A stretch of DNA of 37,467 nt from a virus (lineage: Duplodnaviria > Heunggongvirae > Uroviricota > Caudoviricetes). The notes beneath the pieces are model-generated. The model ran no database searches. It worked only from the letters and a program-made list of their open reading frames with translations, and was not told the DNA's origin. Position numbers and translations under genes: made by a program. Positions 1 through 37,467 of this stretch are shown here, one piece after another. The DNA is taken from IMG/VR virus record IMGVR_UViG_2563366946_000012; one strand, written 5' to 3'. The stretch's first letter is position 1. Each line of letters opens with the position of its first letter.

Positions 1-1287
1 ACCAAGGTAATTGAGGACATCTTTTATACTGCCCTTAGCGATAATAGCGCGACCAATAGCTGTAAGGGTTGCCAGCGCTGCGCGGTCTGCTCCGGTAAAA
101 TAAGGCAACCGATCTGCTGCAGTGGCAAGTCCTGCCAGAGCAGTGAGCGTGGCATCTGCCGGTTGTTTTCCGTTTGCCAGATCGTATGCAGCCTTGACCG
201 CTTTCGGTGTGGCGGCCAGTATTTCAGACGTGCTGTTGATGGCACTGCTCAATTGTACGGTGCCTTTTGCCGTCAGCGAGGCAGCAGGCACTCCCGTTAT
301 CTGACTCCACGGGTGAGTGTGGCTGACGGGCGCCTTGCCGGCTGCAAGGTCGTATGCAGCCTTGACCGCCTTCGGCGTGGCAGCCTCAGTTTCTGATTGA
401 CTGTCCGTGGCGCTGCTCAGTTGTACGGTGCCTTTTGCCGTCAGCGAGGCAGCAGGCACTCCCGTTATCTGACTCCACGGGTGAGTATGGCTGACGGGGG
501 CCTTGCCGGCAGCCAGGTCATATGCAGCCTTGACGGCCTTTGGTGTGGCGGCCAGCGTTTCAGAGGTGCTGTTGGTGGCACTGCTCAGTTGTACGATCCC
601 TTTACGGGTCGTTGTTGCATCCTGGGCTGTGTATTTTCCCCGGGCCAGATCATACGCGATTTTCACAGCCTTCGGCGTGGCAGCCTCAGTTTCTGATTGA
701 CTGTCCGTGGCACTGCTCAGTTGTACGGTGCCTTTTGCCGTCAGCGAGGCAGCAGGCACTCCCGTTATCTGACTCCACGGGTGAGTGTGGCTGACGGGCG
801 CCTTGCCGGCTGCAAGGTCGTATGCAGCCTTGACCGCCTTCGGCGTGGCAGCCTCAGTTTCTGATTGACTGTCCGTGGCGCTGCTCAGTTGTACGGTGCC
901 TTTTGCCGTCAGCGAGGCAGCAGGCACTCCCGTTATCTGACTCCACGGGTGAGTGTGGCTGACGGGTGCCTTGCCGGCTGCAAGGTCGTATGCAGCCTTG
1001 ACGGCTTTTGGTGTGGCGGCCAGCGTTTCAGAGGTGCTGTTGGTGGCACTGCTCAGTTGGGTGAACCCCTTAGCTGTCAGTGTCGCGTCCGGGTGGTTAC
1101 GGGAACGTACGTGTTCAGCCAGTGACTGTGCGGCTTCCTCCGTTTTTTTCTTCAGCCATTTCGTCCTGTTTGCCAGTTGCCGGGGGGCTCGATTTGATAT
1201 CCCGTCAGCACCACCCAGAACCGGATCTGATGTCTCCAGTTGATAGATATTTTCTTCCCACTTTTCTGTTTCATTCAGGTTTCCCAT
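1..1287 (-). CDS. Tail fiber protein, N-terminal portion (gene continues past window start, so absent from the ORF track)
   Basis: Hand translation from ATG at 1285-1287 (2 nt after the stop of the upstream gene) gives MGNLNETEKWEENIYQLETSDPVLGG...HPDATLTAKGFTQLSSATNSTSETLAATPKAVKAAYDLAAGK... with no stop down to position 1. These are the classic phage tail-fibre repeat motifs. Confidence 0.8.
   Translation of the reverse strand, partial: MGNLNETEKWEENIYQLETSDPVLGGADGISNRAPRQLANRTKWLKKKTEEAAQSLAEHVRSRNHPDATLTAKGFTQLSSATNSTSETLAATPKAVKAAYDLAAGKAPVSHTHPWSQITGVPAASLTAKGTVQLSSATDSQSETEAATPKAVKAAYDLAAGKAPVSHTHPWSQITGVPAASLTAKGTVQLSSATDSQSETEAATPKAVKIAYDLARGKYTAQDATTTRKGIVQLSSATNSTSETLAATPKAVKAAYDLAAGKAPVSHTHPWSQITGVPAASLTAKGTVQLSSATDSQSETEAATPKAVKAAYDLAAGKAPVSHTHPWSQITGVPAASLTAKGTVQLSSAINSTSEILAATPKAVKAAYDLANGKQPADATLTALAGLATAADRLPYFTGADRAALATLTAIGRAIIAKGSIKDVLNYLG
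160..1080. repeat. In-frame tandem coding repeats of about 168 bp (56 aa; one 132-bp unit) inside the tail fiber gene
   Basis: Near-identical units starting near 241, 409, 577, 709, 877 and 1045, each encoding QLSSAT(D/N)S.SET.AATPKAVKAAYDLAAGKAPVSHTHPWSQITGVPAASLTAKGTV. They also generate the repeated plus-strand frame-artifact ORFs in the track. Confidence 0.8.
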
Positions 1288-1880: not shown

Positions 1881-2964
1881 TCATGTTAAGTGTGATCGCC
1901 GTACAGTTTGCCCATTCGTTTTCTGCCACCACCCTCAGTGCCGGTGTCACCAGTTCAACCTGGTACACCCCGGAAACGGACAATGCACTGATAATCTGGC
2001 TGGGGACAATATCACGCCCCAGCGTGGCGGCACGTGATGCCACCCAGTTCTGTATGGCGCTGTTAGCGGCATCTTTTACAGACCTGGCATCCTGATCACG
2101 ATAGATCGTAATCCTGGCTTCAATGGTGTAATCCACCTTCACTGGTGTTTTAGCCCGCACTGTATCAGTGAGTGGCCTGACTTTCTCATCAGAGCAGAAA
2201 CTCTCTACCAGCGTGAGAACACCGCCGTCCGGCAGACCGGTACTGAGCAGCGGATACAGATCTACGGTCCCGGGAACCGGGGAAAGCACAGCAACATCGA
2301 CAATGTTGGGATGGGCCTGCATGGCATGAAAGCGGTATGCGCCACGGCTTCCGGCATTGGTGAATGACTCCGGGGCCAGCCTGATACGCTCCCGGAGCCT
2401 GTCATCGTCTTCCTGTTCTGAACCGCCGGAACTGGCCGTCAGATTGCTCACCAGCAGGTCGACGTTATCAATCTCATCGAGTAACTGACTGACCTGCGCA
2501 GGTTGCCAGCCGTTACCAGCGGTACCGGGTTCGGTACAGGTGGACGTGACATTGACCAGCAGCAATCCGGCCTTCAGTACCACATCTGTATCGGTGGCGA
2601 AAATAACGCTGTCGGAAGCGCTGACGCGGGTGCCTGCCGGGATCAGCACATCAATGGCCAGTGCCTCATCTACGGAGAACTGGAGCGTGGTGGTGGCAGG
2701 CTGCGCGGCAAGACGGTATACACCGACCAGTTCACCGAGGTAATCAATCATCGGCTCACGGGCAAAGGCGACCAGATTCTGCTTTGCTGCCTCCTGTACC
2801 GCAACCCTGACCAGCATTTCGCGATAGGCCCACAGATCAATCAGCAGACGTTCTGCCTGTGCCGGGTACAGCGTTTTGCCGGTATCCGCTTCATACTTCG
2901 CAATCATTTCTGCCGTGATTTTGTCGGCATCGCGTTCAATAAAATCGGGTTCTGTCAGCGCCAT
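1861..2964 (-). CDS. Baseplate J-like protein (P2 gpJ / Mu gp47-like)
   Basis: 367-aa ORF in the canonical V-W-J-I-H order; overlaps neighbouring genes as in a coupled baseplate operon. Confidence 0.7.
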   Translation of the reverse strand: MALTEPDFIERDADKITAEMIAKYEADTGKTLYPAQAERLLIDLWAYREMLVRVAVQEAAKQNLVAFAREPMIDYLGELVGVYRLAAQPATTTLQFSVDEALAIDVLIPAGTRVSASDSVIFATDTDVVLKAGLLLVNVTSTCTEPGTAGNGWQPAQVSQLLDEIDNVDLLVSNLTASSGGSEQEDDDRLRERIRLAPESFTNAGSRGAYRFHAMQAHPNIVDVAVLSPVPGTVDLYPLLSTGLPDGGVLTLVESFCSDEKVRPLTDTVRAKTPVKVDYTIEARITIYRDQDARSVKDAANSAIQNWVASRAATLGRDIVPSQIISALSVSGVYQVELVTPALRVVAENEWANCTAITLNMSGVSDD

Positions 2965-3302
2965 AGCAGCTCCTGAGTCCGGGTCTGTCCGTCTGAGCCT
3001 TTCCAGCTCACCCGGAGCGTAAGATGTTCGCCGTCGACGGCGGGTTTAACTGACATAAGCTGGCAGCGGGGCTCCCAGCGCCGGATGGCATCGACGGATT
3101 CGCGCACCACATGCGGAATGGCCCGGTCTACAGGCCAGTCGATATAAAGATGCAGATTGCTGCCGAACTCCGGGCGATGCGGGTCGCTGCCGCGGGGAGT
3201 CCGCAGGATAATTTGAATCGCCTGCCGGATATCATCCAGCCCCCGGACAATTTCGCCGGGAGCCTGCAGGGCTGGTTGCCAGAATACTGAGGTCGTTTTC
3301 AT
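2955..3302 (-). CDS. Baseplate wedge protein, GPW/gp25-like
   Basis: 115-aa ORF between the spike and J-like genes; size and position match the GPW/gp25 family. Confidence 0.65.
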   Translation of the reverse strand: MKTTSVFWQPALQAPGEIVRGLDDIRQAIQIILRTPRGSDPHRPEFGSNLHLYIDWPVDRAIPHVVRESVDAIRRWEPRCQLMSVKPAVDGEHLTLRVSWKGSDGQTRTQELLWR

Positions 3303-3356
3303 GGGGGCAGTATTGCCCCCGTGCGGGAACGCTGATATTAAAGGCGTTTAAGAAGC

Positions 3357-3953
3357 TCAGTGGGAGTGGTGGCTGGAGTTTTCGCCATCAGACAGCATAC
3401 TGCCCGTGGCATGGGCATTCCCTTTAATCTCGATATTGCCATGGATGGTCGCGGTAACACCTTTACCACCAGAACCCGCCATGCCTCCTTCGTAAATCAG
3501 CTTTCCCCTGACACGCAGATCTCCGGTAAGTTCGGTTTCCGGTGCGTCAATCGTGGCTTTCTGTGTTTTCAATACCACATCAGCACCACACTCAATGACA
3601 ATATGCTCAATGCCGCCCCGGATGGTCAGAGTGTGCGTCTTCCGGTTGTAGCTGTACTCTGCACCATCAGCAAACCGGGTTCCCCGGATATTTTTGTCAC
3701 TGAACGGTGGTTTATCGACGTCTGAATACACCGCGCCCAGAATAACACCATCCTCGCCGTTGGCATCGAGCAGCACCTCAACCTGCTCCCCCACGTCAGG
3801 GAGCCAGTAATCTTTGTTATCCTGGGTATTGCGCTGCAGCACGTTAAGCCAGTTTGTGCGCAGGTTATCGCATTCAGGCAGACGAACGCGGGCCTGAACC
3901 CTGTCGGCATCAACGGCACTGACCGTACCGACCTGACGAGTGACACCAGTCAT
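3357..3953 (-). CDS. Baseplate assembly protein V / central spike (Mu gp45-like)
   Basis: 198-aa ORF with gpV-like organisation and a His-rich C-terminus (…GSMLSDGENSSHHSH); sits between the gpD-like and gpW-like genes. Confidence 0.7.
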   Translation of the reverse strand: MTGVTRQVGTVSAVDADRVQARVRLPECDNLRTNWLNVLQRNTQDNKDYWLPDVGEQVEVLLDANGEDGVILGAVYSDVDKPPFSDKNIRGTRFADGAEYSYNRKTHTLTIRGGIEHIVIECGADVVLKTQKATIDAPETELTGDLRVRGKLIYEGGMAGSGGKGVTATIHGNIEIKGNAHATGSMLSDGENSSHHSH

Positions 3954-5104
3954 TTTTTCTTCTCCTTAATCACCGTCGATGTACTGCCATCCGGGTGATA
4001 AACCGTGAGTTTCTGAGTTTTTTGTTTTTTCCCTCTTGTGACTGGCCCCCGTGCCACTTCCAGCTCTGTGGTGTAGCCGCTGTTACGGTCAAACGCATGG
4101 CGGGCAGTGGTTATGAGCCATGGCCCGGATAACTGCCCAAAACTCACCAGTTCAATTTTGTTGCCTGCTGTCAGTTGAGGTGTTCCCGTCAGCGTCAGGG
4201 AGCCGTTCTGCTGGTATTCGTTATGTCTGGCCAGTGCTGAATCCGCTTTAATCCGGGCACTGTCCGGGTCGCTGACGCGGCTGTTAACTTTAAGTGAGTC
4301 AGCGCTGGTAACCTTACCACCTTTGAGCTTTTTGTCGCTTTCACGGGTACCACCATCAGCTTCGTAGACGATCAGTTTTTTACTGCTGCTTTTCTGGTGT
4401 TTTACCTTTGCAGATTTATAGACCCGGTTGATGGTGTCACGCAGGGAAAAGCGGGCCACATCCTGCGGTTTTAACTGCCTGACCGGCTCCTGACTGCGCA
4501 GTGTGGCCAGATGAGAAAAAATCAGCTGGTCACTGACCACTTTCACTGCATAACCATACTCGCTGGCCAGCCGGCGCAGAAAACCCACGTCGGTTTCAGC
4601 ATACTGGGTCACCCGGTCGATTCTGATGGACTCAATGCTGCCCACCAGTTTCAGTCGGTGCTTTCTGGCAATCCGCCCCGCAACAGCTGCCAGCGTGGTG
4701 TTCTCAAAACCACGACTGGTTTTAGTCCGCAGGGCACTGTTAACCGAGGTGGCCACCCCACGGATAGAAACAACGGAAGCGGGCGAACTCACTTCGATCT
4801 CGTCTATAGAGAACGTACCGCAGGACAGCAGCTTCTCGCCCTGATAGCCCATTTTCAGCGTCAGCGTGTCACCCTTGCCCGGATACCACTTATCCAGCCA
4901 GCGGCCATCGGTGTCGTCCAGCTCCACCTCAATGGTATCGGACTCATTTTTGATGTTATCGCTCCAGGTCACACGGGTGACATAAGGCGCGATATCAGAG
5001 GTGATGTTTTTCTGCAGATACCACAGAGTGAACACCGGTGTCAGCACATCGCTGACGCCGGTTAACGCTGATGTGACTTGCGCAGTGCTGTTTATCTCAG
5101 CCAT
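3950..5104 (-). CDS. Tail protein D / late control D family (baseplate hub, Mu P-like)
   Basis: 384-aa ORF, typical size for gpD-family proteins, located after the gpX-like gene and before the spike. Confidence 0.65.
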   Translation of the reverse strand: MAEINSTAQVTSALTGVSDVLTPVFTLWYLQKNITSDIAPYVTRVTWSDNIKNESDTIEVELDDTDGRWLDKWYPGKGDTLTLKMGYQGEKLLSCGTFSIDEIEVSSPASVVSIRGVATSVNSALRTKTSRGFENTTLAAVAGRIARKHRLKLVGSIESIRIDRVTQYAETDVGFLRRLASEYGYAVKVVSDQLIFSHLATLRSQEPVRQLKPQDVARFSLRDTINRVYKSAKVKHQKSSSKKLIVYEADGGTRESDKKLKGGKVTSADSLKVNSRVSDPDSARIKADSALARHNEYQQNGSLTLTGTPQLTAGNKIELVSFGQLSGPWLITTARHAFDRNSGYTTELEVARGPVTRGKKQKTQKLTVYHPDGSTSTVIKEKKK

Positions 5105-5307
5105 GGGGCAATATCCTCTTCTGTACGGGCTTCTTCAGCCTCAATCACCGGGATCAGTAACAACAGCCCGGAGGGCAGCACCGGCGTGATGGCCACGTGC
5201 GGATTGGCGGCAATAATCCGGGGATAGCCCAGCGGGTCACCGTAGTACTGCCATGCCAGCGAATCCCAGCGCTCTCCGTCACGGGTAACATGTTCAAGAA
5301 ACATCAC
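5092..5307 (-). CDS. Tail protein X-like (small LysM-like tail protein)
   Basis: 71-aa ORF between the gpU-like and gpD-like genes; sequence VTRDGERWDSLAWQYYGDP…IIAANP resembles the gpX family. Confidence 0.55.
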   Translation of the reverse strand: MMFLEHVTRDGERWDSLAWQYYGDPLGYPRIIAANPHVAITPVLPSGLLLLIPVIEAEEARTEEDIAPWLR

Positions 5308-6188
5308 ACACTCCTCGTCAGTATTCTGGCGGCCATTGCACTTAATCCCGGAGACATGCGGTTGAATGCTGTGCCGGCGGCGTTAAGCTGCCCGGAAACG
5401 GTATCCAGAGCACCTGCAATATTTCTTTTGTCCACACCACTCAGCGCAGACTGTGCCTGCTGTACATACGTGGCTGCTTCGCTGGCTGTTCTGGCCAGAC
5501 TGATGGCATCGGGCATGGATTCAGAGAGTGCGTTAAACGCCGGAACACTTTTCCCCAGAGCCCCGGAGATATTACCCAGTCCGCTCATCAGCCCCGGCAC
5601 ACGGGTCAGTGCGACAACGGGGTTATCCTTCATTTTCTGTGTCACCCGAACGGCGCTGATAGTGGTCTGGAGTACAGACTGCGCCTGTTTCGCATAGTTG
5701 ACGCCGTTGCGGATGAACTGCGCCACCCCTGAAGGTGAAGGAATGGCACCGGAGACCGCCCCGACACCCGGGAGCTTCGTGCGTATTGCCGGTGGTTGCA
5801 GAGGATTTTTCGGGTCACCGGTGTATTCCCGGAGAGACACGGTGGCACTGACAGCCAGCACGTTGCCGGTACTGTCAGTCTGCTCGCTGGTTGCAGTCAC
5901 ATCGGTAATCACGAACCAGCCGCGATAGTCACCGTTGCCGAAGACCAGCGCCAGTGCCTGATGGGCTTTCATGGCTGTTCGCAGTCTCGCCAGCTCCACA
6001 TCGGGTACACAATAATGCTGATGGAAAACCAGAGTTATCTGGATTTCGTCCAGCCTGTCGCCGACGAATTGCAGGCCAGGCTTCCCCCCGATGCGGGCAT
6101 GCTCCGCATAATCGACGCCGAACGTGGCCTCGAAGCCGTCCCAGTAGGTAATCAGCTCAAACTCAATATCACCCAGTACGGCAAACAT
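5304..6188 (-). CDS. Tail protein (P2 gpU / Mu DNA-circulation N-like)
   Basis: 294-aa ORF directly downstream of the tape measure gene (start/stop abut at 6188); low-complexity Ala/Ser/Gly-rich C-terminal half. Confidence 0.45.
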   Translation of the reverse strand: MFAVLGDIEFELITYWDGFEATFGVDYAEHARIGGKPGLQFVGDRLDEIQITLVFHQHYCVPDVELARLRTAMKAHQALALVFGNGDYRGWFVITDVTATSEQTDSTGNVLAVSATVSLREYTGDPKNPLQPPAIRTKLPGVGAVSGAIPSPSGVAQFIRNGVNYAKQAQSVLQTTISAVRVTQKMKDNPVVALTRVPGLMSGLGNISGALGKSVPAFNALSESMPDAISLARTASEAATYVQQAQSALSGVDKRNIAGALDTVSGQLNAAGTAFNRMSPGLSAMAARILTRSV

Positions 6189-9139
6189 CAGCGGTACTCC
6201 TTACGTTGTTTCTGAGCCAGCAGACGCTCCAGCATTTTTTCCAGCTCATGCAGACTCATATTCAGGGCACCAGTCAGTCCTGCAGGCGCTGTGGTTTCCC
6301 TGCCATTGAGGAAAAACTGAGGATTAAAGCTGACCTGAATACCACCAGACGTTCCACCGCCGGTTGCAGCTGCACCACGGCCTGAATATCCGGCAGCCAG
6401 GATTTCAGACGAGGGGATACGGGGAACATCCGGTGTCATCTCATTTGCCAGACGTTGCCCTGGTAAAATCGATGCCCGGGTGGAGAGCGGAATAGCGGGC
6501 ATGGAAGACAAACTATTGATTACGGATCCGATCGCATTTTTAGCAGACGACATAAACCCGTTGATATCGGGCAACGGCATGCGGAAGTGAACATCTGAAG
6601 TGTTATCCCGTATTTCTGGCCCCTGAATGCTCACGGGCATTTTGGGGAGCAGTTCACTGGCCATTCGCTGACCGGCCAGAGCTGCAAGCGGAGTGCTCCG
6701 CTGCAGGCCAATGGCGGCCCCCTGCGCGATATTGTCACCAAAGCCCATAAACACGCGGCTCGGCGAATGAATGCCCAGCTTTTCGCTGAACCAGCCACTG
6801 ATGCTGTCGCCCATTCCGGTTACGCTGGTTTTGAGTGACTCCCATTTGTTTTTGATACCGTTAATCAGACCGTCGACAAGATGGCCACCGAAGTCGGTGA
6901 ACTTTGCCGGCAGCTCAACGCCGAGATATTTCAGCGCAGCTGCAAAGGCTTTATAGAGCAGACCTGCCGGCGACCAGTTAATCAGCAGCTTACCAGTTCC
7001 CACGATACCGCCGTTAAAGGCTTCCTGAATGTCAGCCCAGCGTTGTTTAAACCAGCTACTGATGCTGTCACCCATTCCGGTTACACTGGATTTGAGCGCC
7101 CCCCATTTGTTTTTGATACCGTTAATCAGACCGTCGATAAGATGGCCACCGAAGTCGGTGAACTTTGCCGGCAGAGCAACGCCGAAATATTTCAGCGCAG
7201 CCGCAAAGGCTTTATAGAGCAGGCCTGCCGGCGACCAGTTAATCAGCAACTTACCAATTCCCACAATGCCGCCGTTAAAGGCTTCCTGAATGTCAGCCCA
7301 GCGCTGTTTAAACCAGCCACTGACTGCCCCCCAGTTGCGGTAGATAAGGTAAGCTGCTGCCGCGACAGCGGTGATAACGAGACCGATGGGATTCATCATC
7401 AGCGCACGTCCAATCCAGAGAACAGCACGTCCGGCGAGCATAATTCCGCGAACCAGCCCCCCGGAGAGCACGCCACTCAGTGTTCTGGCTCCTCTGGCGA
7501 CGGCGCTAAATCCGGTCACCAGCCAGCGGAGCTTACCGCCTTGCCCCAGTGCGAGCGACAGACGAAGCCAGTTGGCCCGAAGTAAAACAGCATTTTTCCA
7601 GACACTTACAAAGGGGGAAATAAGGAGATTCAGCCCCAGTTTGAGACCAACAGTCGCTATCTTAATCGCAAGGAGCGCACTGATGAGCTTAAAAGCCCCA
7701 CTGACAAATTGCGGGTGAGTCGCTACCCAGTGTTTTGTCCCCTGAATGAGTGGGAGCAAGTCCTGAGTCAGAGAAATAAAAGATGGAGCTAATTGATCGC
7801 CCAGCGTAATTGCCAGATCGCGACTGCTGACCATAAGTGCTTTAGTGGCTTCAAGGGGAGATTTCAGCCGCTGATCATAAGCACTGGCAAGCAAATCGTT
7901 ATCCGCAGTCCTGAGAGCACCGGCGCGGATCTCGCGATATCTGTCCATGTTGGCCAGCATCGGGCGGATAAATGCCATGACCTGCATATCCGCGAACATA
8001 TCACCCAGACCAAAGTTTTTCGCCAGAGCCTGAAGTGCCTCATCTCTTGCCGTATCATTCTTTATTTTCATGGCGGATTTGAAGCCGGCCAGCGCTTCGG
8101 GGCTTTTGGCATTGAGGTAACGTTCTATAACACTCAACATCCCTTCAATCGGAGAGATCCCCGCAGCCTTATAACTCGCAATAGATCCCTGCAAATCAAT
8201 ACCCAGATCAGCAAACTGTTTCTGAGTATCGCGGGCAAAAATTTTGGTAAGAAAGTTTTTAAAATTATTGGCTGCCTCGTCGGTGGAACCTGCACCGATT
8301 TTTGCTATCTGGAGACTGGCCCCGATTTCAGCAACAGCCTCTTTTCCACTGGCAATACCCGCCATCATTGGGGCCAGGGACTGCATCCACTTGACCTGAT
8401 CCGGGATTTCAAATGACCCCTGGTCACCGGCATAAGCCATAATATTCTGAACGGCACCAAAATCTCTGGCCGCACCTTTCAGGGAGTTTTGCCAGACTGC
8501 GGCCACTTTTGCCCAGTCCTGAGCAGACGTGCGTGTTGCCGTTGCCGCGCGGGCAATATCCGGCATCAGAAAACCGATATCTGACACATTATCAATATTG
8601 TCGCTGATGAGTGAACCCACCGCCTCCTGCAGCTCATCCTGATACTGATTGTATTTAAGCGCCCAGCCTTTTATCTGTCCGGCAAGTGCATCCCGCGTTT
8701 TATTGTCATATTTTGCGGTGATCGACATATCAATCATTTTGTCCTGAAAAGACATGGACTGCTGAACGGCAGGGGAAACCGTATGATAAACAGTCTGTGC
8801 CATGCCATACGCTTCAATCCCCTGACCATACAGCGCCATGCGGTTAGCTTTCAGCGCATCACTGGTAGCGGATGCCGCTGACAGACGGCGCTGCTGGCGC
8901 ACAATTTGCTCCATGGTGCGGCTTACCCGCAGCAGCTCGCTGTTGAGATGCTGCATCCGGGAAGAACCCAGTTGACCATAACGTTCTGTTGCACGGGTTA
9001 AAGCGTTCTGACGTTCCTGCAGGCGGCGTGAGGTATCGCTCAGGGAATCAAGCGCACGGCGGGTACCGCTCATTGCAGAACGGAATGTGCTGCCAATCAT
9101 CCCGCCGATAACAACGCCGACTGAAAACTGTCCCGACAT
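6188..9139 (-). CDS. Tail tape measure protein
   Basis: 983-aa ORF, the longest in the tail module. Alpha-helical/coiled-coil N-terminus, hydrophobic central segments, internal repeats; lies downstream of the chaperone pair with a GGAGG RBS. Confidence 0.85.
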   Translation of the reverse strand: MSGQFSVGVVIGGMIGSTFRSAMSGTRRALDSLSDTSRRLQERQNALTRATERYGQLGSSRMQHLNSELLRVSRTMEQIVRQQRRLSAASATSDALKANRMALYGQGIEAYGMAQTVYHTVSPAVQQSMSFQDKMIDMSITAKYDNKTRDALAGQIKGWALKYNQYQDELQEAVGSLISDNIDNVSDIGFLMPDIARAATATRTSAQDWAKVAAVWQNSLKGAARDFGAVQNIMAYAGDQGSFEIPDQVKWMQSLAPMMAGIASGKEAVAEIGASLQIAKIGAGSTDEAANNFKNFLTKIFARDTQKQFADLGIDLQGSIASYKAAGISPIEGMLSVIERYLNAKSPEALAGFKSAMKIKNDTARDEALQALAKNFGLGDMFADMQVMAFIRPMLANMDRYREIRAGALRTADNDLLASAYDQRLKSPLEATKALMVSSRDLAITLGDQLAPSFISLTQDLLPLIQGTKHWVATHPQFVSGAFKLISALLAIKIATVGLKLGLNLLISPFVSVWKNAVLLRANWLRLSLALGQGGKLRWLVTGFSAVARGARTLSGVLSGGLVRGIMLAGRAVLWIGRALMMNPIGLVITAVAAAAYLIYRNWGAVSGWFKQRWADIQEAFNGGIVGIGKLLINWSPAGLLYKAFAAALKYFGVALPAKFTDFGGHLIDGLINGIKNKWGALKSSVTGMGDSISSWFKQRWADIQEAFNGGIVGTGKLLINWSPAGLLYKAFAAALKYLGVELPAKFTDFGGHLVDGLINGIKNKWESLKTSVTGMGDSISGWFSEKLGIHSPSRVFMGFGDNIAQGAAIGLQRSTPLAALAGQRMASELLPKMPVSIQGPEIRDNTSDVHFRMPLPDINGFMSSAKNAIGSVINSLSSMPAIPLSTRASILPGQRLANEMTPDVPRIPSSEILAAGYSGRGAAATGGGTSGGIQVSFNPQFFLNGRETTAPAGLTGALNMSLHELEKMLERLLAQKQRKEYR
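6770..7330. repeat. Tandem duplication of a 261-bp (87-aa) unit inside the tape measure gene (two full copies plus the start of a third)
   Basis: Units begin near 6789, 7050 and 7311; protein repeat SWFKQRWADIQEAFNGGIVG(I/T)GKLLINWSPAGLLYKAFAAALKY…GMGDSIS occurs twice in tandem. Confidence 0.85.
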
Positions 9140-9214: not shown

Positions 9215-9472
9215 CTATGATTTGTCGCCGTACTCGCTTTTGATTTGCTCTTCAGCCTGCTCCAGCCACATCTCCAGATCGTCAGTATCGAGGGCATCAA
9301 TCTCCCCCGGCTGAAACCGGAACCATCTCGCCAGCAGCCCCTGCGCCTGCGTCAGCGCCCTGGTTGCTCTCACCCATCCCCGTGATGAGCTGAAATCGTT
9401 TCTGTAACTGCAGGTAATCAGCCAGATCCATATTGTCGAGATCTTCCGGGAGAAGACCAGTACTGCGGGCAA
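9215..9472 (-). CDS. Overlapping alternative-frame ORF, candidate frameshift extension of the tail chaperone (E'-like)
   Basis: 85-aa ORF in a different frame overlapping the 3' half of the chaperone and ending just upstream of the tape measure start; acidic protein-like C-terminal sequence (…FQPGEIDALDTDDLEMWLEQAEEQIKSEYGDKS). Confidence 0.4.
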   Translation of the reverse strand: MPAVLVFSRKISTIWIWLITCSYRNDFSSSRGWVRATRALTQAQGLLARWFRFQPGEIDALDTDDLEMWLEQAEEQIKSEYGDKS

Positions 9473-9632
9473 TCAGCGGTTCGTCCCAGTCTGCCGGGTT
9501 TTTGCTGATTTTGCGCACCTGCTTCAGGTCTTTTACCGTCAGGCGTTTCAGTTCAACCTGCTCAATTCTGGTGCCTGCAGCAGTGGTGAAGGGATAAGAC
9601 AATTTAAAAGTATCGGATGGGGTCTGTGACAT
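9297..9632 (-). CDS. Tail assembly chaperone (P2 gpE / Mu gp41-like)
   Basis: 111-aa ORF between tube and tape measure; contains …LLPEDLDNMDLADYLQLQKRF…, resembling gpE-type chaperones. Confidence 0.55.
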   Translation of the reverse strand: MSQTPSDTFKLSYPFTTAAGTRIEQVELKRLTVKDLKQVRKISKNPADWDEPLIARSTGLLPEDLDNMDLADYLQLQKRFQLITGMGESNQGADAGAGAAGEMVPVSAGGD

Positions 9633-10013: not shown

Positions 10014-10535
10014 TCAGCCCCCGATATTGATACGGTAGTCAGTCAGTTGATCAACACCGCCGACCCGGAAGATGTTGGCCAGATAGTCCAGTTGCAGCAG
10101 CTCTTCACCATCCAGTACCTGTCTGATATACGTGCAGGTGAAGCTACTGGAGAACTCGGCGTTCTCGTGCTGTTTGAACGTCCCCAGCGGGTTCTTCTTG
10201 AACATAATCGTCAGGAAGGTGACCAGCGGGATTTCGTCAATCAGCCCCTGCGAGCTGTAGCGCTGGACGCTGGAACGACACTGCAGTGCCAGCGACCTGT
10301 ACGGGTTCGCGGCTGACAGCATCGCATCGCGGTAAAAGCTGTTCCATTTGATTTCGCCTTCCAGTTTGTCAAAACCAGCCGGGAGTTCCACCTTACCCAC
10401 CATCCCCAGCGCCTTGTGTTCCTGCATAATCATGGAGACATCGGGGAGTTTAACTTCCTCAGCCCGTCCCAGCAGGTTAGTACCATCCAGATAGATGTTG
10501 GCATTCGTGATGCGGTTTATCTCAATCTTTGACAT
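10014..10535 (-). CDS. Tail tube protein
   Basis: 173-aa ORF immediately downstream of the sheath gene (overlapping stop/start); size and position typical of contractile-tail tube proteins. Confidence 0.75.
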   Translation of the reverse strand: MSKIEINRITNANIYLDGTNLLGRAEEVKLPDVSMIMQEHKALGMVGKVELPAGFDKLEGEIKWNSFYRDAMLSAANPYRSLALQCRSSVQRYSSQGLIDEIPLVTFLTIMFKKNPLGTFKQHENAEFSSSFTCTYIRQVLDGEELLQLDYLANIFRVGGVDQLTDYRINIGG

Positions 10536-11962
10536 CAGTTGCCCCCTTTCAGGGTTAACAGGTATTCCGAGGTGATCTCAGTCTCAAACGTCAGTCGCTC
10601 CAGCGGCGGCGGTGGCGTATATTTGTAACTCAGCAACAGGTGCCCGGCGGCCAGCTCCGTCTCCGGATTGCGGGCCGGATCAAACCAGCAACGGAAGCCC
10701 AGTACCGCACCATCACCAGTCATTTTGCGACCGTAGGCGTTGACCGACTCCGTCAGTGCATCAATCAGCGCCTGAGTAATCGGCATGTCGATGTACTGCT
10801 GGCTGAAATAACGAATGGACTCGTTGATCACATCACCGGTGCGGCGAACGTTCTCAAAGTTACGCATATGGGTGACCGTTGGCCATGCTGCCGTCCGGTT
10901 ACCCCACAGACGAAGGCCGCTGCCGTAACTGCTGAATACCGTGGTGATCCCCTGTTCGTTAAGCAGGTTCACCTCACTCTGCGGGTCATCAATCATCGCG
11001 GACAGCTGGCGCTCCACGCCGGTGATCCCCAGAATCTCCTGATTGGAGGATGACCACCAGTAGCCCTTGTCCAGATCGACTCTGGCACGCAGACCTGCTG
11101 CACGCTGGCTGAGCGGCTCCAGACGCTCTGTGTTTGTCACCGGGTCATATACCTTCACATGCGGATAGCACAGACGGACGCGGTCGGAGCTGGTATTGAA
11201 GTTGATGGTGCCTTCCGGGCCACGACCTGCCAGAGCCTGTGCAAAGGTGGTACCGACAGGCGCATCAATGTAGGTTACCGCGCCCAGCTTCTCTGCCATG
11301 GCGATAAGCTCAACTGCGACACTCTTCTGGGTGCAGAACACCGGCGCAATCAGAATTTTGGCGAAATAGCCGTACAGGTTGAAGCTGTCGTTAAGCAGCT
11401 TCATGCCGGTTCGGTTTCCGGCGCTGTTCACCCCGCCGATGATGTCCGCCGCAGTCACCTTCGACGGGTCCGCGTACTCATAGCTCACCTTCACGCTGCC
11501 ATCGGCCTCAATAGCCTTGCCCAGGTTCGTGAGCACACCCGCCTGCGCATCAACACGGTAGTCCGTGTTCGCCGTGTGGGTGGTGCTGCCTTCACTGTTT
11601 TTCACCACCACATTAGCGACAACCGGATGCGCCAGTCTGGCCTGCCCTGTCGATTTGTCAAAGGTAACCACCTCATCCTCGATCGCCGTTTTATGTTTCG
11701 CCGGGTCGAGGACGTTAATGACCAGAACGGTGCCTGCACCATGGTCATAAATCGCATCCAGCGCCTGCGGAATGGTAAAGCCGGTGAACTGGCTGCCAAA
11801 TGCCGCTGCGTCTTTCTCAGACAGGCACTGTACCAGCGTATTGACATCCCCCATCGGGGCGGTACCAATCAGGCCAATAACGGCAGATTTCACCGTTTTA
11901 ACCGGGCGGGCTCCGTTTTCCACCTCAATGGTTTCGACGCCATGCAGATAGTTAGCTGCCAT
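10535..11962 (-). CDS. Tail sheath protein
   Basis: 475-aa ORF preceding the tube gene; typical sheath size and order. Confidence 0.8.
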   Translation of the reverse strand: MAANYLHGVETIEVENGARPVKTVKSAVIGLIGTAPMGDVNTLVQCLSEKDAAAFGSQFTGFTIPQALDAIYDHGAGTVLVINVLDPAKHKTAIEDEVVTFDKSTGQARLAHPVVANVVVKNSEGSTTHTANTDYRVDAQAGVLTNLGKAIEADGSVKVSYEYADPSKVTAADIIGGVNSAGNRTGMKLLNDSFNLYGYFAKILIAPVFCTQKSVAVELIAMAEKLGAVTYIDAPVGTTFAQALAGRGPEGTINFNTSSDRVRLCYPHVKVYDPVTNTERLEPLSQRAAGLRARVDLDKGYWWSSSNQEILGITGVERQLSAMIDDPQSEVNLLNEQGITTVFSSYGSGLRLWGNRTAAWPTVTHMRNFENVRRTGDVINESIRYFSQQYIDMPITQALIDALTESVNAYGRKMTGDGAVLGFRCWFDPARNPETELAAGHLLLSYKYTPPPPLERLTFETEITSEYLLTLKGGN

Positions 11963-28250: not shown

Positions 28251-30020
28251 ATGAATGCTGCCCTGACTGAACGACTGGTTTATGTCGCCCGCGCGGCACG
28301 TGACGCGGGGCATGGTAAACGCGGTGCAATATACGACGCTGCCTGTGCTGAACTTGGCATGTCCCGCGCCACTCTGCTGCGCAGGCTGAAGGAGGTCTCT
28401 GTGACTGATAAACGCAAAAAACGCGCTGATGCCGGACGCAGCGCCCTGACCCGCGACGAAGCCGCGCTGATATCTGCCACACTGCGTGAGGCCACCCGCA
28501 AGAACGGTAAACGCCTCTATTCCATCGCAGATGCAGTGGAAACCCTGCGGGCTAACGGCTTTATCACCGCAGGCAGAACAGATGAAACCACCGGTGAGTT
28601 TTTCCCGTTGTCTGAAGATGCCATCAGCCGTGCTCTGCGTAACTATGGCCTGCACCCGGAACAACTGGATGCTCCTGCACCGCATACCGAAGTGGCCAGT
28701 CTGCACCCCAATCATGTCTGGCAGATTGACGCCTCACTCTGCACGCTTTACTACCTGAGCAATGGACATAAAGGGCTGCAGGTGATGGACAGAGCGAAGT
28801 TCTACAAGAACAAGCCCGCTAACCTTGCCCGTATCGCCAGTGACCGCGTGTGGAGTTACGAGATTACCGACCATGCCAGCGGCTGGATTTACGTTGAGTA
28901 TGTGACGGGCGCGGAATCAGGTGAGAACCTGTGTTCTGTGCTTATCAACGCCATGCAGGAGCGTGGCGGCGCAGACGTGCTGCACGGTGTGCCGAAAATA
29001 CTCTATCTCGACCCCGGCTCGGCAAACACCGCGGGTATGACGAAAAACATGTGCCGCTCACTGGGCATCGACCTGATAGCGCACAAGCCGCATAACGCCC
29101 GCGCCACCGGACAGGTGGAAAAGGCGCGGGACATTATCGAACGCAAGCTGGAGCCGGGTCTGAAGTTCCGGCCGGTTCACAGTCTGGAAGAACTCAACGC
29201 GCTGGCCGCGAAATGGCGCAGCCACTTTAACGCCACGGCTGTTCACAGCCGCCACGGTAAAACCCGCACGGATATCTGGCTGAAGATTACTGCTGAGCAG
29301 CTGAAAAAAGCGCCTCCCGTTGAGGTATGTCGTGAACTGGCTGTGGCGGCACCAGAACTCCGCAAAGTCACGCCAAAACTTCGTGTCTCGTTCCGGGGCA
29401 CTGAATTTGACGTATCAACGGTACCGGGCGTACTGGTTGGTGAAAAACTGATGATTACCCGTAACCCATGGCGCAGCGATGTGGCACAGGTGGTTCTGAC
29501 CGGTGAGGACGGCCACGAGACGTTCTTCCTGGTCGAAGAGGTCAGAAAGAACGAGTTTGGCTTTGCTGAAGGCGCGGCGGTATTTGGCGAAAGTTACAAA
29601 GCCCTGCCGGAAACCCCGGCACAGATGGCGGCAAAAGAAACCGAAGCGCTGGTTACCGGTACAGACAACGCCGCAGATGCAGCCGCCGCACGCAAGGCGA
29701 AGGCGCTGCCGTTCGGCGGGCGGCTTGACCCGTATAAACATATCGACGACACCACACTTCCGGCCTATATGCCGAAGCGTGGTCAGGCCTCTGACGTACG
29801 CGGGCCGCGCACTGAACAACGTCCCATGACTCATGTGGAGGCCGCGAAAGCCCTGCGCGATAAGTTCAGCGCCGACGGCCTTACCTGGACGCCGGAACAT
29901 TACCGCCAGTTAACGGCACAGTACCCGGACGGCGTACCGGAAGCCGCACTGGATGAAGTCATGGCCACGCTGACCACACCGGCCCGCAGCAGTGTTATCA
30001 GCATTGTTAACGGCAACTGA
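28251..30020 (+). CDS. DDE transposase (MuA-like / rve-type integrase core)
   Basis: 589 aa; candidate catalytic triad in …HVWQIDASLCTLYY…, …ILYLDPGSANTAG…, …ATGQVEKARDI…; followed by the ATPase partner. Confidence 0.8.
   Translation: MNAALTERLVYVARAARDAGHGKRGAIYDAACAELGMSRATLLRRLKEVSVTDKRKKRADAGRSALTRDEAALISATLREATRKNGKRLYSIADAVETLRANGFITAGRTDETTGEFFPLSEDAISRALRNYGLHPEQLDAPAPHTEVASLHPNHVWQIDASLCTLYYLSNGHKGLQVMDRAKFYKNKPANLARIASDRVWSYEITDHASGWIYVEYVTGAESGENLCSVLINAMQERGGADVLHGVPKILYLDPGSANTAGMTKNMCRSLGIDLIAHKPHNARATGQVEKARDIIERKLEPGLKFRPVHSLEELNALAAKWRSHFNATAVHSRHGKTRTDIWLKITAEQLKKAPPVEVCRELAVAAPELRKVTPKLRVSFRGTEFDVSTVPGVLVGEKLMITRNPWRSDVAQVVLTGEDGHETFFLVEEVRKNEFGFAEGAAVFGESYKALPETPAQMAAKETEALVTGTDNAADAAAARKAKALPFGGRLDPYKHIDDTTLPAYMPKRGQASDVRGPRTEQRPMTHVEAAKALRDKFSADGLTWTPEHYRQLTAQYPDGVPEAALDEVMATLTTPARSSVISIVNGN

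Positions 30021-34847: not shown

Positions 34848-37467
<2,620 letters not shown>

Follow-up and report, generated by a model that had tools for sequence, protein, structure and literature searches.

How should a 261-bp tandem duplication lying inside a phage tape measure gene be read: as an error of assembly, as the decay of a prophage, or as natural variation in a gene that sets the length of the tail? The question was raised by the IMG/VR record IMGVR_UViG_2563366946_000012, a stretch of 37,467 nucleotides from a tailed virus (Caudoviricetes) which is called here the window. We consider it probable that this is an in-frame tandem duplication whose copy number is polymorphic by unequal recombination, in the ruler gene of a BcepMu-like prophage, and that each unit lengthens the tail.

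Tandem Repeats Finder (TRF) reported a single strong array in the window, with a period of 261 bp, 2.0 copies, 93% matches, no indels and a score of 944. The array consists of two units of 261 bp and 13 bp of a third one on the minus strand. The gene, the units and the copies of the 13-mer are located as follows:

6188–9139, minus strand: tail tape measure protein gene, 983 aa (open reading frame (ORF), PF10145, TIGR01760, PHROGs)
6789–7323, minus strand: tandem repeat array (TRF)
7058–7318, minus strand: unit copy 1, N-proximal, aa 608–694 (codon register)
6797–7057, minus strand: unit copy 2, C-proximal, aa 695–781 (codon register)
7311–7323, minus strand: 13-bp boundary direct repeat at the N-side edge of the array, the "start of third unit" (read from the sequence)
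7050–7062, minus strand: 13-mer at the junction of copy 1 and copy 2, one mismatch (read from the sequence)
6789–6801, minus strand: 13-mer on the C-side boundary of the array (read from the sequence)

The two copies differed at 18 of 261 nucleotides and at eight of 87 amino acids (79 shared, 91% identity), and since 261 is three times 87 the duplication is in frame. A preliminary description of the window had announced two near-identical 87-aa units and the start of a third, in tandem within the tape measure gene. TRF, the ORF and the family models agreed with this account, the third unit being represented by the 13 bp AACCAGCCACTGA on the plus strand (TCAGTGGCTGGTT on the coding strand). Chance cannot account for a repeat of this length (261 bp) at 93% identity.

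The curated cut-offs of two tape measure families were passed: PF10145 matched aa 159–340 of the protein with 74 bits (cut-off 33.2) and TIGR01760 (tape_meas_TP901) matched with 58.9 bits (cut-off 28.8). The protein also matched the PHROG tape-measure families phrog_28 (E-value 2e-135) and phrog_794, a 100%-identical copy in Escherichia coli TUM13754 was annotated as a tape measure protein, and the position of the gene within the tail module was the expected one. By family models and gene order, the 983-aa gene is identified as the tape measure gene.

The repeat does disturb assembly, as the preliminary description had foreseen, and annotation as well. In the nearest deposited phage, Escherichia phage PhiKM (Bcepmuvirus; 96% identity over the tape measure gene), the gene is annotated as "disrupted by sequencing gap" and a run of 100 N lies inside the array. 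In strain AVS0754 the three-copy gene is intact, yet the Prokaryotic Genome Annotation Pipeline (PGAP) splits it into two partial pseudogenes. The IMG/VR contig IMGVR_UViG_2740892433_000005 (L014) carries two arrays at positions 2686–7052, one of 4.0 and one of 3.4 units. Between them lies a partial duplication of 110 bp (371-bp super-period) that is out of frame and breaks the tape measure gene into ORFs of 532 and 929 aa. L014 was the only case of an array with more than three units among the loci examined and it is frame-broken; it represents either a misassembly or a degenerate hyper-expanded allele. The PhiKM gap and the L014 array would fit an explanation in which the repeat of the window was itself collapsed or expanded in the source assembly. 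However, the identical 2952-bp gene of TUM13754 comes from a complete genome, and independent laboratories have obtained the two-copy form in hundreds of complete genomes; seven IMG/VR contigs have it too. The ORF of the window is intact, and the two units are readily told apart in reads because 18 positions differ. An assembly artefact as the source of the duplication, an eventuality considered in the preliminary description, is in our view extremely improbable. Gaps, pseudogene mis-annotation and possibly wrong short-read copy numbers mean nevertheless that the length of this tape measure should be taken only from long-read data.

A separate observation concerned the "partial" tape measure proteins of the databases. 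The idea that they come from contigs broken at the repeat was rejected, as nearly all were truncated at the N-terminus. Many partial copies among the database hits P0049–P0109 break at aa 6–170, away from the array at aa 608–781, and such truncations indicate that short-read contigs frequently stop close to the beginning of this gene.

Of the 5,426 complete E. coli genomes, 634 matched the tape measure gene and 631 matched the 261-bp unit searched alone, the latter at 1,471 places. We sampled 60 records spread over the ranking of the unit matches and examined about 12 loci closely. In this sample, seven records had one unit place, 37 had two, 12 had three and the remaining four had four, five or nine; the two-copy allele was the commonest. 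The alleles differed by whole units only. With one unit the gene measures 2691 bp and the protein 896 aa (loci L002 and L011), with two units 2952 bp and 983 aa (window, L009 and L010), and with three units 3213 bp and 1070 aa (L003, L004 and L008). Among the host strains, IPCEC48 has the one-copy L011, MINF_1A the two-copy L009, and both GN04979 and strain 3359 carry three copies. The more distant E. coli relatives L005–L007, with proteins of 821–825 aa, have one unit. The preliminary description had opposed the window to relatives with a single unit and had called for a comparison of tape measure length with copy number; single-unit relatives do exist among the fetched loci, relatives with three units exist as well, and length follows copy number. 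The same length classes of 896, 983 and 1070 aa were found in the protein database with one, two and three unit motifs, respectively, and the largest cluster, of 1,995 members, was that of the 983-aa protein. When IMG/VR was scanned for exact matches to the unit–unit junction, ten contigs were retrieved: the seven two-copy contigs, two with three copies (L013 and L021) and the aberrant L014.

The records with four, five or nine matches were candidates for alleles of more than three copies. Two of them were opened and showed normal two- or three-copy genes, and one further multi-match record contained two separate loci, so the candidates were rejected. Records with at least four unit matches are read as genomes with several prophages; those with four to nine matches were E. 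coli GN04979 (L008), p11A, MINF_1A and AR_0067. Since the genes at the opened loci are normal, these genomes would hold two or three copies of the prophage, which is consistent with recent replicative transposition.

How the alleles arose was read from the variable sites, aligned across the units of loci L002–L011 and of the window. The flanks of the one-copy locus L011 and of the two-copy locus L009 showed 0 differences over 1821 nt and 0 over 609 nt, and the unit of L011 begins as L009 copy 1 (5′ part) and continues as copy 2 (3′ part), which is a contraction. In the other one-copy locus, L002, the unit is likewise a chimera of copies 1 and 2, here those of the L010 haplotype, and its crossover falls in another interval (sites 97–113). 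The middle unit of the three-copy locus L003 joins the 5′ part of copy 2 to the 3′ part of copy 1, with a crossover near sites 62–70. The same kind of middle unit was found in the three-copy locus L008, which belongs to the other of the two flank haplogroups described below, with a crossover near sites 3–16. Chimeric units were therefore observed with four different crossover intervals (L002, L003, L008 and L011) in two genetic backgrounds. They are the reciprocal products expected of unequal homologous recombination, and show this process to be the cause of the change in copy number. At the level of the aligned sites they show at least two independent gains and at least two independent losses. 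The suggestion that the array is a hotspot of recombination thus gained direct support, in the form of recurrent expansion and contraction.

The first duplication, from one to two units, is older than the later changes in copy number: the copies differ by 6.9%, about as much as separates them from the single unit found in the L005 lineage. In the single-copy allele of L002, the unit is flanked by a 13-bp direct repeat, of which an 11/13 version is present in L005 and L006. We propose that the 13-bp direct repeat TCAGTGGCTGGTT was probably where the first duplication began, through slippage or illegitimate recombination. Later, misaligned units with 93% identity recombined to give alleles of one, two and three units, leaving chimeric units behind.

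The flanks of the array have different histories. In the 1821-bp 5′ flank (7319–9139), loci L002–L011 fell into two haplogroups approximately 3.8% apart (about 70 differences). In the 609-bp 3′ flank (6188–6796), the sister loci showed 0–5 differences among them, and the window differed from them by 11–13. A divergent 5′ flank next to a near-identical 3′ flank indicates that recombination has made the gene a mosaic whose breakpoint lies at the repeat or close to it.

Variation of this type could also be expected if the prophage were defective and its tape measure gene drifting, the changes in copy number being neutral decay without a phenotype. Most occurrences are indeed prophages in clonal lineages, the chaperone gene of L002 has an internal stop and another ORF of the same locus is frameshifted, and the tape measure gene of L014 is broken. 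Yet the reading frame was kept over 896–1070 codons in all the one-, two- and three-copy alleles examined. Between the two copies of the window the rates of synonymous (dS) and nonsynonymous (dN) substitution were 0.178 and 0.044, respectively, and the dN/dS ratio of 0.24 indicates that both copies are constrained by purifying selection. In addition, the prophage of the window has an apparently full gene set, PhiKM was deposited as a phage from uropathogenic E. coli, and the existence of several genomes with two or three transposed copies implies recent activity. Neutral decay seems to us very unlikely.

If the duplication is real and maintained, what would additional units do to the tail? In phage TP901-1, deletions in the tape measure shorten the tail linearly, 118 nm corresponding to approximately 810 length-determining residues, or about 0.146 nm per residue (PMC5099701). 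The proteins gpH of lambda (Katsura and Hendrix 1984) and gp29 of T4 (Abuladze 1994) are the classical rulers, as they are cited in passages of PMC3271669 and PMC13585406. The tape measure protein would be extended in the lumen of the tube, mostly as alpha-helix, and would stop the polymerisation of tube and sheath, so each extra unit should lengthen the tail. Work by Pedersen from 2000 is also said to have used the TP901-1 tape measure protein as an experimental ruler. At about 0.146–0.15 nm per residue, each 87-aa unit would add approximately 13 nm. The rise of a tube or sheath ring is roughly 4 nm, and the expected gain would therefore correspond to roughly three rings per unit. The tube protein WP_162832341.1 was identical at loci with tape measures of 821 (L006), 825 (L005), 896, 983 and 1070 aa, and no other gene needs to change. 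Our literature search found no tail-length measurements for this phage group, including in reports on Mu-like prophages of sequence type 131 (ST131) and in the KS10 paper, and a search for PhiKM and Bcepmuvirus returned only unrelated papers on phiKMV.

The distribution of the unit outside E. coli was then of importance. Together with the IHSPSRVF motif that follows it, the unit was found at 565 places in 564 deposited phage records, with a single place in each of the 40 records listed. The identity was 50–58% in the Burkholderia phages phiE255, KS14 and phiE12-2, and also in phages of Ralstonia, Pasteurella and Pseudomonas. Among 1.84 billion representative proteins, 6,468 relatives were found. 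In 23 of the best 150 representatives, a sample biased towards multi-copy proteins since each additional copy adds to the score, two to four near-full copies stood in tandem with unit spacings of 60–119 aa. In most of these multi-copy representatives the copies were about 50–73% identical within the protein, compared to about 40–50% identity with the E. coli unit. The differing spacings and the greater likeness within a protein show that the same module was multiplied independently in other lineages. The unit is best described, from these comparisons, as a conserved and usually single-copy module of related tape measure proteins.

This conservation leads to another explanation, in which the duplication is real and the unit is a functional module that might interact with the membrane, the hub or the chaperone, beside the IHSPSRVF motif. 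It would not act by its length as a ruler, and copy number would alter the infection properties and not the tail length proportionally. The elements that surround the units in the protein are the following:

6749–6775, minus strand: conserved GIHSPSRVF motif, aa 789–797, directly after the array (read from the sequence; kept with the unit in many phages)
7340–7426, minus strand: hydrophobic segment, aa 572–600, immediately upstream of the units in the protein (Kyte–Doolittle scan)
7601–7711, minus strand: hydrophobic segment, aa 477–513 (Kyte–Doolittle scan)

The position of the unit behind two hydrophobic segments would suit such a module, as would the single copy kept with its motif in tape measures of P2-like and Mu-like phages and the purifying selection on the copies. 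The classical tape measure repeat of 11 or 18 aa with aromatic residues (Belcaid type), whose 11-aa periodicity would speak for a ruler, was ruled out: the autocorrelation of W, F and Y over aa 441–694 showed no peak at a lag of 11, 18, 22 or 29. In TP901-1, however, deletions in the hydrophobic region shorten the tail proportionally, as do deletions of repeats, indicating that essentially all internal residues count (PMC5099701). The segment is also predicted to be almost wholly helical: an AlphaFold2 single-sequence model of aa 540–830 was about 90% helix, at low confidence (mean predicted local distance difference test, pLDDT, of 48), the helix being briefly interrupted at the PAKFTDFGG stretch in both units. 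Finally, the module reaches up to four copies elsewhere, and representatives that have three or four of them rank with the longer proteins. We hold a role restricted to such interactions to be unlikely.

Concerning the inner structure of the unit, a blastp comparison of the whole protein with itself gave the diagonal only. A piecewise comparison detected no internal sub-repeat and no mutual similarity between the halves of the unit. It did reveal a weak collinear similarity of the unit to aa 556–606 (E-value 0.017), a region overlapping the hydrophobic segment at aa 572–600.

The case can be situated among known systems. The gene belongs to the same family (TIGR01760, PF10145) and has the same gene order as P2 gpT, Mu gp42 and phiE255 gp18. 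Unlike in the P2-, Mu- and BcepMu-like phages of the 40 listed records, the unit is here in tandem and varies from one to three copies within one lineage. In lambda (gpH), TP901-1 (Mahony 2016, PMC5099701) and T4 (gp29), internal in-frame deletions or duplications scale tail length; those were engineered or selected laboratory mutants, whereas the present series is natural and came about repeatedly in prophages. The repeats of Belcaid et al. 2011 (PMC3271669), in the lactococcal phages p2 and TP901-1, similarly vary in the number of tandem units by duplication and loss, but they are aromatic repeats of 11 or 18 aa, whereas the unit described here has 87 aa, few copies (one to three) and 91% amino acid identity. 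A 2026 survey found myovirus tape measure proteins to be mostly without tandem repeats (PMC13585406), which makes the present array somewhat atypical, not unprecedented. The likeness to bacterial coding repeats of the variable number tandem repeat (VNTR) or minisatellite type lies in the copy-number alleles, the chimeric junction units, the recurrent gain and loss and the trouble caused in assembly and annotation. In contrast to these, nothing pointed to phase variation that is programmed or of high frequency, and a long unit (261 bp) is combined with a narrow range of copies.

Several points weigh against copy-number change in a ruler gene as the full account. The effect on tail length is a prediction for every allele. 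The helix model has low confidence, and a search of the PDB with the tape measure protein found no homologous solved structure. The segment is not a classical periodic "ruler repeat". As a conserved and normally single-copy module placed after hydrophobic segments and before IHSPSRVF, it may have a role beyond length. Because a tandem duplication can be read in more than one register, an origin at the 13-bp microhomology cannot be proven. Lastly, the dominance of the two-copy allele may come from the clonal spread of ST131-type hosts and not from selection on tail length.

By its gene content, the window is assigned to a BcepMu-like (Bcepmuvirus) transposable prophage. A transposase with an rve domain is encoded at 28251–30020, and the matching annotated prophage has an ExeA-family gene (MuB-like role), Gam, Mor, lysis genes and Mu-like head genes. 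Membership agrees with the presence of the transposition genes, with the varying insertion site in the host and with the existence of up to three copies per genome; the same prophage is beside yhfW in TUM13754 and inside sslE in the window. An ORF that starts right at the end of the window (34948–37467, minus strand) encodes 839 aa with DUF4092 and represents the 5′ portion of the host gene sslE, whose product is the lipoprotein metalloprotease and mucinase SslE/YghJ. Homology to the host starts at approximately position 34980, adjoining the Mor end of the prophage, which appears to sit inside sslE and to truncate it. This junction was not found in any complete E. coli genome of the collection. 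At the 5′ end of sslE (37204–37309), short tandem repeats of 18 and 42 bp form a low-complexity linker, with a weak Trypan_PARP-like match; such a linker is typical of the SslE N-terminus.

The tail module has the order sheath, tube, gpE-like chaperone, tape measure, gpU-, gpX- and gpD-like genes, and the sheath and tube genes show the tail to be of the P2-type contractile kind. The neighbours of the tape measure gene are:

10535–11962, minus strand: tail sheath gene (phrog_23)
10014–10535, minus strand: tail tube gene (annotation; the PHROGs label for this ORF is "head closure", phrog_55)
9297–9632, minus strand: gpE-like tail assembly chaperone, upstream of the tape measure gene (PF10109 Phage_TAC_7, 78.7 bits; phrog_166)
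5304–6188, minus strand: gpU-like tail protein, downstream of the tape measure gene (phrog_788; annotation)
3950–5104: gpD-like gene, downstream of the tape measure gene

A second and older length difference was observed in the tape measure protein. A segment of 71 aa (aa 823–893, positions 6461–6673 of the window) is absent from the 821–825-aa relatives L005–L007. A direct repeat that has diverged, STPLAALAGQRMASELLPKMP / STRASILPGQRLANEMTPDVP (E-value 7e-5), marks its boundaries and suggests that it came from an earlier partial duplication. Like the tape measure gene, the tail fibre gene is a structural gene rich in repeats; it extends beyond the start of the window. Its N-terminal 429 aa (1–1287, minus strand) contain six matches to PF03406, the "phage tail fibre repeat", and its DNA shows two tandem arrays of 168 bp (56 aa) with 85–92% identity, at 175–603 and 668–1059.

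A broader idea, which we hold to be doubtful, is that the module of approximately 75–90 aa upstream of IHSPSRVF is a general "length cassette" of P2- and Mu-type tape measures, repeatedly gained and lost, giving a quantised tail-length polymorphism that is possibly selected. If this were true, near-isogenic prophages of one E. coli clone would differ in steps of about three tube or sheath rings per unit, and the polymorphism might be selected, for example to fit the thickness of the capsule or O-antigen layer, and would not be neutral. Short of this, the case is a natural and well-documented instance of an already known principle. The length of the tape measure is a textbook protein ruler, and the evidence comes mostly from engineered mutants, mainly of siphoviruses. 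The present lineage offers a natural series of one, two and three units, some pairs having identical flanks and the tube protein being identical throughout, in a phage which is contractile-tailed and common in clinical E. coli, including ST131. Such a series could be used to relate residues to tube and sheath rings, and tail length to infection.

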